Shown here in pieces: positions 49,339 through 52,687 of a DNA stretch of 64,000 nt (position 1 is the stretch's first letter; each line of letters opens with the position of its first letter). Source of the DNA: Shigella phage sb1; sequence record PQ666539. One strand, given 5' to 3'. The notes beneath the pieces were generated by a model. The model did no database searches, had not been told where the DNA came from, and saw nothing but the letters and a program-made list of their open reading frames with translations. Both the position numbers and the translations under genes were made by a program.

Positions 49339-49627
49339 ATCGGTGTTTGCAATGACGGCATTTATAACGAAGATTACTAGTCTGCCAATGGACTAATTGA
49401 ACCTGTTCAGTACCGCATTCAGGGCAATTAGGAACGCTTTTAGAAGCCCTTTCGCAACGTTCAACCATAGTCATAATGGCATCCCAGGCTGGAGGTTTAA
49501 AATCTAAATCATCACAACCATGAATCTTTCCACGCATTTCCAGATCGTCTTCTTCACCAGCCATAATAATTTTAATTAGACTGGAATTACTTGAAGCTGC
49601 AATGTCTTCTAATAGACGCTTTTTCAT
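49310..49627 (-). CDS. zinc-ribbon protein
   Basis: 105-aa ORF with CPECG...CRHCKH. Confidence 0.5.
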
Positions 49628-50553
49628 TTCAATACCTCAATGGCATTACGTAAACCGTTTGCTTTTGCATTAAGAGCTTTTAACAATTTGGTGTGTTCGG
49701 CAATCTGGGCTTCAACTTCAATCAAGCGAGCATTGAGATATTCACGTTCTTCGCTCAGGTTATCAACCTTTTCTACTTTAGGTTCTTTTACAACTGGCTT
49801 ATACGTATTAGGGTTCTTCAGTTTAATTAGAATGCGTGAGCTGTATAACATTGAACCATTATCTTCGGTTTCATCATACATTTCCACTACGTCCATAATT
49901 TTTAACATCATGCGAAGTTTATAAGACAACGAACGAATAGTTTTGTTGTGCTTATTAATTTCTTTAGCTGTCATGGTGCCGAGATTACGTGAGTAATAAT
50001 AAGGAACCTGGATATTAATTAATACTGATGAACCACCTGGCTTGTGTGTTACTTCATCAGCAATAACCCAGTCCTTAACATGAACTGTATTTGTACGGTC
50101 ATCGCCTGCGGTAAATAGTTTGCGAGCATGCTTAAAAAGCATATTCACTTGGGCATTGAATTGACAAGCAAATTTATCAGCAAATTTAGTTTCAGGAATG
50201 GTAGATAACCAATCAGCCAAATGGGTCTTTTTAACATCGTTAACAATAGTAAATTCAACCAAATCGGTTATAGATGTCGTAGATTTTATGAAGCTCGGCT
50301 TCATAAAGTTTTTAATGTTATCTCGAGCTACAGTAGAAGATAACATACGAGAACGTTTAAACCATTCAAGCAAATTGCCTAACGAATGAGAATAAGCGTT
50401 TTGAGTATCTTTACAGATATGATTTTCCTGGCCAACATATTGAAGGAAATCACGAAGAATATTATTAATTACTGCTCTGTGTCCGATCTGATAATTACGG
50501 TGTTTAGTAATAAGACTGTCAAAATAATCAATATAATGTTTACGAGTTTTCAT
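49624..50553 (-). CDS. hypothetical protein with C-terminal coiled coil
   Basis: 309-aa ORF; architecture resembles the next two genes. Confidence 0.55.
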   Translation of the reverse strand: MKTRKHYIDYFDSLITKHRNYQIGHRAVINNILRDFLQYVGQENHICKDTQNAYSHSLGNLLEWFKRSRMLSSTVARDNIKNFMKPSFIKSTTSITDLVEFTIVNDVKKTHLADWLSTIPETKFADKFACQFNAQVNMLFKHARKLFTAGDDRTNTVHVKDWVIADEVTHKPGGSSVLINIQVPYYYSRNLGTMTAKEINKHNKTIRSLSYKLRMMLKIMDVVEMYDETEDNGSMLYSSRILIKLKNPNTYKPVVKEPKVEKVDNLSEEREYLNARLIEVEAQIAEHTKLLKALNAKANGLRNAIEVLK

Positions 50554-50605
50554 GTTCTTCTCACTTGATTAATGATTTATACTCCGAGCCATCCTTGGCT
50601 TTAAA

Positions 50606-51607
50606 TTACTTAATTAACTGTAAAGCTTGTTCAAGACGATCCAAGCGATTAACAGATTCTTCCCAAATCCTTTTAGCCTGCTCATATTCTTTCTGCGCTT
50701 TATTAGAAATTTCTAGAACTTCCTTATAAGCTTTTTCTAGTGCAATAACTTCTGGACGAATTTCTAACGGTTCAGGTGAATCGTCAAGACATTCCATTAG
50801 TTCCTCAAGGGTAGTTTCTTCTTTAGGAGTATTCACAATTTCTTCACATTTTTGTTGATAAATTTCTTTATCAGTCGGTGAGTACGCACATTTCACTTCA
50901 CGGAGGCTAATTATAATTTTATATCCTTCCCAACCACACATATTTTTGAAAGGATATGTATGAATACTTTTTACAGTTTCCATACAGCCCAAAGCCGCCT
51001 CTAATTGATAAGTTATAGTGCTAGCAATTGAGAAAAATTTATTAATATTCTTTTGGTTAGCGTTTGGTGTAAAAAATCCATAATTCACAAAAATAGCTAC
51101 TTTATTTTTATCAAGTTCATTTTCTTTTACGATAATCATATCAGAAGCCAAAGGATGAATTTGACGATAATCGCCATAACATAATTTAGAAGCTGATTTT
51201 AGAATTTGCTTCTTGAAAAGTCTGAAATTACTAATCCAACGACGAGTAAAAATATTCTCAGGGTCTTCTTTATTATTAAGATGATATGAATTAACATCAC
51301 CGAACCAATTATATCCTACTACATCTTTAGTTCGTTTAATTTCTTTCCCAAATTTACTGAGAATATCTCTGTTGACTAAGTATGAAAGAAGACGAGAACC
51401 TTTGAAGGTTTCCTTAATGTCATCTTTATATGTACGACTAGAAATTTCACAAACTTCATAAATAAATTTGTCGGAAGAGACAATACTTGCACTAGTATTA
51501 TTGATCCATTGATTGATAATAGAAATCACACTATTCTGACTAGACATAGGTTTAACTTTATCATCAATAACGCTATTGAACGATTTGATATATTCGTTAC
51601 GAGTCAT
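50606..51607 (-). CDS. hypothetical protein with C-terminal coiled coil
   Basis: Likely start MTRNEYIKSF; shares LFKKQILKSASKL-type motif with 51665..52687. Confidence 0.55.
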   Translation of the reverse strand: MTRNEYIKSFNSVIDDKVKPMSSQNSVISIINQWINNTSASIVSSDKFIYEVCEISSRTYKDDIKETFKGSRLLSYLVNRDILSKFGKEIKRTKDVVGYNWFGDVNSYHLNNKEDPENIFTRRWISNFRLFKKQILKSASKLCYGDYRQIHPLASDMIIVKENELDKNKVAIFVNYGFFTPNANQKNINKFFSIASTITYQLEAALGCMETVKSIHTYPFKNMCGWEGYKIIISLREVKCAYSPTDKEIYQQKCEEIVNTPKEETTLEELMECLDDSPEPLEIRPEVIALEKAYKEVLEISNKAQKEYEQAKRIWEESVNRLDRLEQALQLIK

Positions 51608-51635
51608 ATTAATCTCCTCAGTAGAAAGTAAGAAC

Positions 51636-51665
51636 ATTATACCACATCCTTGTGACAAAGTAAAC
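51636..51665 (-). promoter_or_regulatory. T4 early promoter (GTTTAC, 18 bp, TATAAT)
   Basis: Consensus on minus strand. Confidence 0.5.
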
Positions 51666-52687
51666 TAGTTTAGTGCATTTAGTGCATTGTTCAGTTTAGA
51701 ACGTTGCTTCGTAAGATTTTGAACCCTTGACTGAGCTTTTTCTAGCATCTTTTCAGCTTCTAACACTTCATTAGTTGCTTTAACGAGTTCATCATCTACT
51801 GCCTTGATAGACTTCTCAATCGCATCCGCATGCCATTTTTCAACAGGTTTAAGACTCGGATTTTCAACAGGAAGAAAATTCACTTTATTGAATTTCCATG
51901 CATCTTTATTACTTGAACTATACATCCAAAATTTAGGATCGTTTGATGAGTAATTGGATAAATTTAAGATATCTTGCACTTCCTGCTTTTTCTCTTGTGG
52001 GACTTCGTCCTTTCTCAAAAAATCGTATTTAAATGAAACGATCATATCAAGTTCATACGTTGTTGTGTCTAATTTAAATCGCTCAAAATGAGGTAAAATC
52101 TTAGACTGAACAGCGGCAACAACATACATATACTTAAATGCTTCTGTCAACTGTGATTTAAGGCATTCGCAAATTGAAAGAGAATTTTTTGTATTAGGTT
52201 TAAAGCTAATTCGCGCAGTTCTGTTATTTTCTTTTAATGGTCTTACTTCCATCTGAAGAGTATAACCATCAAATTTCAGGTTCTTTAAGTTAATGTAAGA
52301 ACCTTTTAATCGACTAGCAGTCGACAAAATTTGCTTTAATTGTCTACGGAACAGAGCAATAAATCTCCATTCAATACGATAATGATTTGGATTGAAAAAT
52401 CCAGATGATAAATCGACCTTACTTTGACCAACGCCTTGAACAAATAGAGGATTTTTATAATCAATGGTTTTACAGAAATCGGTAAGCTGCTCACGAGCCG
52501 TCATTTGTGTAATATACCCCGCTTTACTAAAATTACTCACCCATTCACTGCTATTTAGATATTTAAAGTGATGAATAGCACGATTAACTTTATCAGGGTC
52601 TAAATTATTTTCACACAAAAATGTCATAACATTACGAGTATCGCTGGCAGTACGAACCATATCTTCAATTTGAGAACGAGTTTTCAT
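51665..52687 (-). CDS. hypothetical protein with C-terminal coiled coil
   Basis: 340-aa ORF. Confidence 0.55.
   Translation of the reverse strand: MKTRSQIEDMVRTASDTRNVMTFLCENNLDPDKVNRAIHHFKYLNSSEWVSNFSKAGYITQMTAREQLTDFCKTIDYKNPLFVQGVGQSKVDLSSGFFNPNHYRIEWRFIALFRRQLKQILSTASRLKGSYINLKNLKFDGYTLQMEVRPLKENNRTARISFKPNTKNSLSICECLKSQLTEAFKYMYVVAAVQSKILPHFERFKLDTTTYELDMIVSFKYDFLRKDEVPQEKKQEVQDILNLSNYSSNDPKFWMYSSSNKDAWKFNKVNFLPVENPSLKPVEKWHADAIEKSIKAVDDELVKATNEVLEAEKMLEKAQSRVQNLTKQRSKLNNALNALN

Follow-up and report, generated by a model that had tools for sequence, protein, structure and literature searches.

The window analysed here is a stretch of 64,000 nucleotides from Shigella phage sb1 (sequence record PQ666539), and its subject is a run of three tandem open reading frames (ORFs) on the minus strand. 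Their similar size, given as 310–340 amino acids (aa) in an original prediction made from the letters alone, was recovered at the expected positions, the products measuring 309, 333 and 340 aa. When the 4.2 kb surrounding the three ORFs are compared with phage records, 710 of these match, the top one being Shigella phage Sfk20 at 97.2%. The phage is T4-type and belongs to the genus Tequatrovirus, and comparison with the T4 reference, in gene order as well as in sequence identity, shows the ORFs to be nrdC.3, nrdC.4 and nrdC.5:

49624..50553, minus strand: nrdC.3, 309 aa; PHROG 1435, Pfam PF26897 ("Phage_T4_Y04OP")
50606..51607, minus strand: nrdC.4, 333 aa; PHROG 1435, PF26897
51665..52687, minus strand: nrdC.5, 340 aa; Pfam DUF7235 (PF23882), PHROG 2351

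Amino-acid identity to the T4 proteins amounts to 88–94% for nrdC.4 and nrdC.5 and to 61% for nrdC.3. Both nrdC.3 and nrdC.4 match PHROG 1435 (E 4.6e-117 and 1.3e-162, respectively), and PF26897 is assigned to them via homologs 95–96% identical that carry it, while DUF7235 covers residues 1–340 of nrdC.5 with 416 bits (cut-off 30; E 1e-124) and PHROG 2351 matches the same protein with E 4e-167. The alignment of nrdC.5 with T4 NrdC.5 is ungapped, with 321 of 340 residues identical (94%), and the gene occupies the same place in the gene order, between nrdC.6 and nrdC.4; by sequence and synteny it is the ortholog of the T4 protein that counters the Dsr1 defence. In comparisons with seven relatives, the ratio of nonsynonymous to synonymous substitution rates (dN/dS) of the three ORFs lies at 0.04–0.31 and, given this range and the match in 710 phage records, they are considered real, conserved coding genes.

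Of the three proteins, nrdC.3 and nrdC.4 are the closest to each other. BLASTP aligns them over 229 residues at 26% identity with an E value of 3e-9, so that significant pairwise similarity does exist within the array, and hhalign gives a probability of 98.1% (E 1e-13); judged from sequence, the two are clearly paralogs. The original prediction had proposed that at least two of the ORFs are paralogous, and this held in a wider sense than anticipated, since all three turn out to be homologous, by BLASTP for nrdC.3 and nrdC.4 and by profile comparison for nrdC.5. It had, however, linked the second ORF to the third, whereas the first and second are much closer (E 3e-9 versus 0.39). Neither nrdC.4 and nrdC.5 (E 0.39) nor nrdC.3 and nrdC.5 reach significance in the all-versus-all BLASTP comparison.

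This lack of significance, together with the unspecific nature of the M-K-T-R start, could be taken to mean that the three ORFs are unrelated genes of similar size, alike by chance and by coiled-coil composition. With profiles built from close relatives only, the hhalign probability between nrdC.4 and nrdC.5 is 42%, and this unenriched alignment starts at the motif LFKKQILKSASKL / LFRRQLKQILSTASRL, which had been pointed out as common to the second and third ORFs and indeed lies inside the profile–profile alignment of both families. The motif resides in the following segments:

51182..51244, minus strand: motif helix of nrdC.4, aa 122–142, RRWISNFRLFKKQILKSASKL, which holds the shared motif
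52307..52369, minus strand: counterpart motif helix of nrdC.5, aa 107–127, WRFIALFRRQLKQILSTASRL

The nrdC.5 family looked very narrow at first, its known members being at least 79% identical, and tblastn against loci of other T-even genera revealed nrdC.5-like genes of 22–27% identity in the same position; with these divergent genes in the nrdC.5 profile, the hhalign probability rose to as much as 88%. The nrdC.3/4 profile, run against 1.84 billion representative proteins, gave 11 hits, all from T-even phages, with no relatives by sequence outside this group. When two proteins, P0155 and P0162, were added to the nrdC.3/4 profile, the comparison with the enriched nrdC.5 profile reached 96.0% (E 4.9e-9) over 248 colinear columns, at about 21% identity. 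Against chance resemblance, the probability remains at 93.1% (E 3.2e-7) after removal of both terminal helices, and under the same conditions the reversed nrdC.5 profile gives 0.1% and 20 column shuffles give at most 0.7%. Moreover, the metagenomic protein P0162, one of the 11 hits, resembles nrdC.4 at its N-terminus and nrdC.5 at its C-terminus and is matched by the hidden Markov models (HMMs) of both families (28 bits for nrdC.5 and 23 bits for nrdC.4); in the manner of nrdC.3 and nrdC.4, its gene immediately precedes an nrdC.2 homolog. From its sequence, P0162 is a bridging protein between the two families.

Thanks to the enriched profiles, the helix-removed comparison with its reversed and shuffled controls, and this bridging protein, nrdC.3/4 and nrdC.5 can be placed in one superfamily, in which, as read from the alignments, nrdC.3 and nrdC.4 form a recent pair and nrdC.5 an old branch. 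A fortuitous likeness is therefore refuted by the controls for nrdC.3/4 and nrdC.5 and retains hardly any credibility for the three ORFs as a whole; this refutation does not extend to nrdC.6, the gene directly upstream. In current classifications, nrdC.3/4, nrdC.5 and nrdC.6 are filed as separate families of unknown function (Pfam PF26897 and PF23882; PHROGs 1435, 2351 and 2257), of which the first two are here joined firmly and the third tentatively.

Another feature common to the three proteins is a heptad-like segment at the C-terminus, as had been noticed originally. In each case the best 42-residue window with hydrophobic a and d positions was compared with 200 shuffles of the protein's own sequence, and it fell within the last 60 residues and exceeded all shuffles: 0.73 against a shuffle maximum of 0.70 in nrdC.3, 0.70 against 0.68 in nrdC.4, and 0.90 against 0.77 in nrdC.5. 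AlphaFold2 predicts a single long terminal helix in nrdC.4 (residues 285–332) and in nrdC.5 (281–339). The segments are as follows:

49627..49773, minus strand: C-terminal coiled-coil segment of nrdC.3, aa 261–309, by heptad score
50609..50755, minus strand: C-terminal coiled-coil helix of nrdC.4, aa 285–333, ending in ...RLEQALQLIK, by AlphaFold2 and heptad score
51668..51847, minus strand: C-terminal coiled-coil helix of nrdC.5, aa 281–340, ending in ...KLNNALNALN, by AlphaFold2 and heptad score

Among the 159 ORFs that are 60 residues or longer, the terminal motif L-x-x-[AIV]-[LIV]-x-x-[LIV]-x?-[KN] occurs in four, namely nrdC.3 to nrdC.6, from which the pattern was itself derived. The M-(K)-T-R start, also noted originally, is found in all three ORFs, but it is unspecific, as the loose form M-x(0-3)-T-R opens four other ORFs of the window, and it was rejected as a signature of the family.

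With regard to structure, a good AlphaFold2 model was obtained for nrdC.4, with a mean predicted local distance difference test (pLDDT) of 84 and a predicted template-modelling score (pTM) of 0.68, comprising a helical N-terminal domain (residues 3–84), an alpha/beta core (88–235), a low-confidence acidic linker (about 260–284) and the terminal helix. The nrdC.5 model is poor (pLDDT 54), owing to a shallow alignment made up of Tequatrovirus sequences only, and just its terminal helix is confident. Within the limits set by this poor model, its aligned region runs through helix, strands, helix, two strands, linker and long helix, in the element order also seen in nrdC.4. A common plan may be proposed, in which an N-terminal helical domain is followed by an alpha/beta core, a flexible linker and, at the C-terminus, a coiled coil of 45–60 residues; this plan is confidently predicted in nrdC.4 only, and the alignments and the weaker nrdC.5 model fit it. 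In a Foldseek search of predicted viral structures, nrdC.4 gave 18 matches at E ≤1e-3, the named ones being uncharacterised proteins, mostly of 280–374 residues, from T4-like phages of Acinetobacter, Erwinia, Pectobacterium, Serratia, Klebsiella and Yersinia; proteins of the Serratia phage CBH8 and the Erwinia phage Cronus are neighbours of both nrdC.4 and the weak nrdC.5 model.

None of the proteins has an above-threshold match to an enzyme family among Pfam, NCBIfam or PDB sequences. Candidates lying far under the curated cut-offs were rejected, namely a PHL domain and an integrase SAM-like domain in nrdC.3, XerD, DUF3905 and coiled-coil families, as were designed helical repeats and coiled coils (E >0.04), the sole matches of the nrdC.3/4 profile among PDB sequences. 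The polar residues K69, S71, R72, D104 and R148, invariant in nrdC.3/4, are not all kept at the aligned nrdC.5 positions, and the alignment of nrdC.3/4 with nrdC.5 holds no conserved set of polar residues common to the whole superfamily.

A probable fourth member, which the original description of a three-member array had missed, lies directly upstream:

52696..53586, minus strand: nrdC.6, probable family member, PHROG 2257; coiled coil ending in ...KLIKIVDLLKS

In relatives, nrdC.6 is a single protein of 295–296 residues with a C-terminal coiled coil of its own. In the window it is split into ORFs of 132 and 144 aa by an in-frame TAA at 53188–53190, where all relatives checked have GAA, and the ORFs at 53188–53601 and 52696–53130 match the two ends of PHROG 2257 (303 positions). 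Its assignment to the family rests on one Foldseek hit, between the nrdC.4 model and the model of JS10 nrdC.6 (E 1.6e-5, probability 1.0, TM 0.37/0.43; a single hit with no link at the sequence level), together with its size, position and C-terminal helix, from which it is probably a fourth member. In T4 itself (L001, 10067–10894), nrdC.6 carries a 1-nucleotide deletion relative to the window, and the resulting frameshift drops the coiled coil and leaves 275 aa instead of 295–296; what the reference annotation shows is therefore a shortened version of the gene.

For one member of the array, a function has been published. An evolved T4 clone with compensatory deletions including nrdC.5 does not infect E. 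coli ECOR17 (Srikant et al., eLife 2022, PMC9391042), and expressing T4 nrdC.5 restores plating of the T4 deletion clone on MG1655 carrying the ECOR17 dsr1 gene (PMC9391042). In the same work nrdC.5 is called an early gene, and the nrdC genes of the array are absent from the list of 62 essential T4 genes (PMC9391042). Dsr1 is a SIR2-domain protein with an Avs7-type sensor that recognises the phage major capsid protein (PMC13581612). The original statement that no function could be assigned is thus outdated for the third ORF, the T4 counterpart of which, 94% identical, counters Dsr1 (PMC9391042). It is nevertheless important to stress that Dsr1 rescue was demonstrated for the T4 allele, that of the window being its ortholog, and that nrdC.3 and nrdC.4 are distant paralogs of T4 NrdC.5, at about 21% identity. 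Searches of the literature on nrdC.3, nrdC.4, DUF7235 and Dsr1 with ECOR17 yielded nothing beyond Srikant et al. 2022 (PMC9391042).

Early expression is also suggested for nrdC.4 by inspection of the sequence upstream of its start. The true start is the ATG at 51607, preceded at a distance of 6 nucleotides by a GAGGAG Shine-Dalgarno sequence (51614–51619); a longer ORF with a TTG start is spurious, as it extends through the promoter, the -35 element of which overlaps the nrdC.5 stop codon. This promoter was called against the consensus of T4 early promoters. Downstream, the GAGAAG ribosome-binding site of nrdC.3 comes after a short stem-loop:

51636..51665, minus strand: early-type promoter of nrdC.4, GTTTAC, 18-nucleotide spacer and TATAAT with TGg before it, by sequence inspection
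50584..50598, no strand assigned: short G+C-rich stem-loop within the 52-nucleotide gap between nrdC.4 and nrdC.3

The distribution of the array among T-even phages, which had been suggested as a check, can be outlined as follows:

Tequatroviruses: nrdC.3, nrdC.4, nrdC.5 and nrdC.6
Other enterobacterial T-even loci (L006–L014): nrdC.4, an nrdC.5-like gene and nrdC.6, without nrdC.3
Mosigvirus HX01: nrdC.3 in the place of nrdC.4, within a stretch of about 6 kb showing 94% identity to the window

The most widely kept member in enterobacterial T-evens is nrdC.4, and the family recognisable by sequence is confined to T-even phages. By predicted structure and synteny, the family reaches the T4-like phages of Acinetobacter: the structural matches E5E4A1 and E5E4A2 of phage Acj61 agree in length with Acj61p120 (330 aa) and Acj61p121 (304 aa), which lie side by side in the interval from nrdC to nrdC.10 and both encode a coiled coil at the C-terminus. 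The tandem arrangement in this slot is therefore old within the Straboviridae. As to selection, dN/dS of nrdC.3 to nrdC.6 is mostly 0.1–0.3, as opposed to 0.04–0.08 for gp49, nrdC and nrdC.9, which describes selection that is purifying but relaxed.

Together with the overlapping downstream zinc-ribbon gene nrdC.2 (49310–49627), nrdC.3 exists as two deep alleles within Tequatrovirus (loci L001, L003, L004 and L016 versus L005 and L017), with 61% versus 98–99% amino-acid identity and a synonymous divergence (dS) of about 1 or more. The allele of the window is 99% identical to that of one locus and 61% identical to that of T4, and its flanking genes stand at about 90–97%. The nrdD–nrdC.3 block of HX01 (L019, 411–6477) shares about 94% DNA identity with window positions 44246–50482 over some 6 kb, and the similarity falls off inside nrdC.3 or just past it; the pattern suggests that the two genera recombined here, the breakpoint lying at the paralog. 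Among other copies, nrdC.4 of an IMG/VR Tequatrovirus genome (L009, 8001–9003) is frameshifted into ORFs of 193 and 158 aa, and a 299-aa protein from metagenomic T-even contigs, P0056, fuses nrdC.5 residues 146–272 to nrdC.3 from residue 138, nrdC.4 being deleted. The junction in P0056 is out of register at a common "VN", and homologous exchange between nrdC.5 and nrdC.3 was rejected as its origin in favour of a deletion fusion. Finally, most non-Tequatrovirus T-even loci (L006–L014, at about 6830–7070) encode a predicted membrane protein of 71 aa between nrdC.6 and the nrdC.5-like gene; it runs into the start of the nrdC.5-like gene and is absent from the window.

Taken together, the reading that is preferred, with a probability of roughly 0.55, is that the array consists of anciently duplicated, fast-diverging paralogs that T4-like phages keep at a constant place downstream of nrdC; as a diversified family, these would inhibit host immune proteins early on, probably as oligomers formed via their coiled coils. 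The proteins are non-essential and accessory. Of the anti-defence role suggested originally for the whole array, the part concerning nrdC.5 stands on experiment (PMC9391042), whereas for nrdC.3 and nrdC.4 it is inferred from their homology to nrdC.5, the early promoter, dN/dS values 3–4 times those of housekeeping neighbours, and the allelic replacement and inter-genus exchange of nrdC.3; nrdC.6 would be a putative anti-defence protein likewise. Each paralog may act as a stoichiometric inhibitor, oligomerised via its coiled coil, whose variable globular part would engage a single specific sensor or effector of host immunity at an early stage of infection, ahead of the synthesis of the late structural proteins to which such sensors respond (in the case of nrdC.5, before capsid protein builds up). 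The paralogs would thereby put the same scaffold to other targets, and the set would be readjusted by duplication, allelic replacement and loss to whichever defences the local hosts carry. A binding protein is favoured over an enzyme because of the missing enzyme-family match, the missing superfamily-wide polar set and the linker-plus-coiled-coil build. For nrdC.5, a model of action is offered by DSAD1 of an SPbeta phage, which is reported to bind the defence sirtuin DSR2 and to block its activation; DSR2 senses the tail tube and Dsr1 the capsid protein, and the likeness drawn here is one of mode of action, with no kinship in sequence or structure being claimed. Another comparison is with clustered phage counter-defence loci such as the T4 "anti-TA (toxin–antitoxin) island" (dmd, tifA and adfA), likewise a group of early accessory genes, small to medium in size, without which the host range is restricted; that island consists of unrelated genes, in contrast to the tandem paralogs of the nrdC.3–5 cluster.

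Several observations weigh against this reading of the array as a family of inhibitors. Gene-wide dN/dS of nrdC.3 to nrdC.6 does not exceed 0.4, well below 1, and gives no sign of positive selection. The searchable literature contains no experiment tying nrdC.3, nrdC.4 or nrdC.6 to any defence system, nor was a published mechanism of nrdC.5 acting on Dsr1 found, direct binding being assumed by analogy. The pLDDT of 54 of the nrdC.5 model makes its structural comparison with nrdC.4 indirect. With regard to nrdC.6, hhalign probabilities with the other three do not exceed 1.6% outside the coiled coil and HMM scores do not exceed 6 bits; in addition, the gene is truncated in T4 and broken here, so that at least this member is dispensable.

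A serious rival, if on balance an unlikely one, is that only nrdC.5 serves in counter-defence and that nrdC.3 and nrdC.4 took up other early functions, directed at a host housekeeping complex or at phage gene expression, so that a scaffold is shared but not a role. An identity of about 21% between nrdC.3/4 and nrdC.5 leaves ample room for diverged functions, and nrdC.4 is the member retained most widely in enterobacterial T-evens. On the other hand, the genes of the array are not among the 62 essential ones of T4 (PMC9391042), nrdC.3 and nrdC.4 replace one another in one slot in HX01, nrdC.3 has undergone deep allelic replacement, and the sequence family is limited to T-even phages; this dispensability, slot swapping, allelic replacement and confinement point to accessory host-range genes rather than to core regulators. 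Far less probable is an enzymatic role, in which nrdC.5 and its paralogs would undo the harm caused by a defence effector, for instance by rebuilding NAD+. The idea derives some appeal from Dsr1, a SIR2 NADase that is thought to deplete NAD+, and from NAD+-reconstituting phage pathways (NARP), which overcome DSR1, but the same absence of enzyme-family matches in Pfam, NCBIfam and PDB sequences, the incomplete conservation in nrdC.5 of the residues invariant in nrdC.3/4, and a linker-plus-coiled-coil build atypical of metabolic enzymes all speak against it.

A structural or assembly role, akin to that of tail terminator or tail completion proteins, has an even slighter chance of being correct. 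It is prompted by weak Foldseek matches of the nrdC.5 model (pLDDT 54) to such proteins, at E of about 1e-2, and the similarity to the fold of lambda gpU, T5 p142 and SPP1 gp17-like proteins, with low Z scores and 2–16% identity, amounts to a fold lead only. In T4, gp3 and gp15 already serve as terminators. Proteins of that kind are structural and made late, whereas the nrdC.4 promoter is early-type rather than late, and nrdC.5 is a dispensable early gene that viable T4 deletion clones lose (PMC9391042); the family also differs from them in its additional N-terminal helical domain and its C-terminal coiled coil. The RefSeq record of T6 (L016, NC_054907.1, 3001–4023) does call nrdC.5 a "tail sheath stabilizer and completion protein", a label that was discarded as copied from a misannotated record, the neighbouring labels being wrong as well. 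In a variant that combines the fold lead with immunity, and that is improbable though less so than a true tail role, the proteins would be early-made decoys: the alpha/beta core, with its likeness to the tail-terminator/completion fold, would be a structural-protein fold put to a new use, occupying Dsr1- or Avs-type receptors, which respond to the shape of capsid, tail terminator and other virion proteins, ahead of the genuine late proteins. The sensor would be trapped by the coiled coil in an oligomer unable to signal, and there would be one paralog per receptor.

As regards what is new, the T4 genes have long been annotated and the counter-defence role of nrdC.5 was already published, so that the superfamily link is a modest addition. 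New are the union of nrdC.3/4 and nrdC.5 in one superfamily, the probable inclusion of nrdC.6 and the conservation of the slot across T4-like phages, accompanied by allelic replacement and decay. Accordingly described, nrdC.3, nrdC.4 and nrdC.6 are putative counter-defence proteins related to NrdC.5 and not a new kind of system: by orthology nrdC.5 would be an inhibitor of the Dsr1 sirtuin defence, and its two downstream neighbours, like probably its upstream one, are divergent duplicates of it. Three "hypothetical proteins" thereby become specific counter-defence candidates; they occur in hundreds of T-even phages, a good many of which were isolated for phage therapy, and the paralogs offer a natural comparison set, with one scaffold and differing variable surfaces, for mapping target specificity. 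The alleles and broken copies found among close relatives may also help to explain differences in host range between near-identical phages.

Some minor observations concern annotation and the neighbouring genes. In Sfk20 (L017, 5166–6188) nrdC.5 has no annotation despite an intact frame that is 95% identical and free of stop codons, and in many other records all nrdC.x genes are named "thioredoxin". The three adjacent genes nrdC.6, nrdC.7 and nrdC.8 of the window each contain one in-frame GAA-to-TAA change (53188–53190, 53753–53755 and 54294–54296), at sites where GAA is kept in every alignable relative (2, 5 and 7 loci, respectively). Over 9.2 kb, no indel separates the window from Sfk20, and among the 271 substitutions G>T (26) and C>A (23) are far more frequent than the other transversions (1–9 each). 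The three stops could reflect real pseudogenisation, an artefact of damage or sequencing biased towards G:C-to-T:A changes, or ochre codons introduced by engineering. Further upstream, nrdC.10 (55043–56010) and nrdC.11 (56129–57135) each align to T4 in two frames, with 1-nucleotide indels near 55824, 55062, 55044 and 56449; since Sfk20 aligns ungapped over window positions 46500–55700, at least the indels near 55044 and 55062 appear to be lineage-specific rather than sequence errors.

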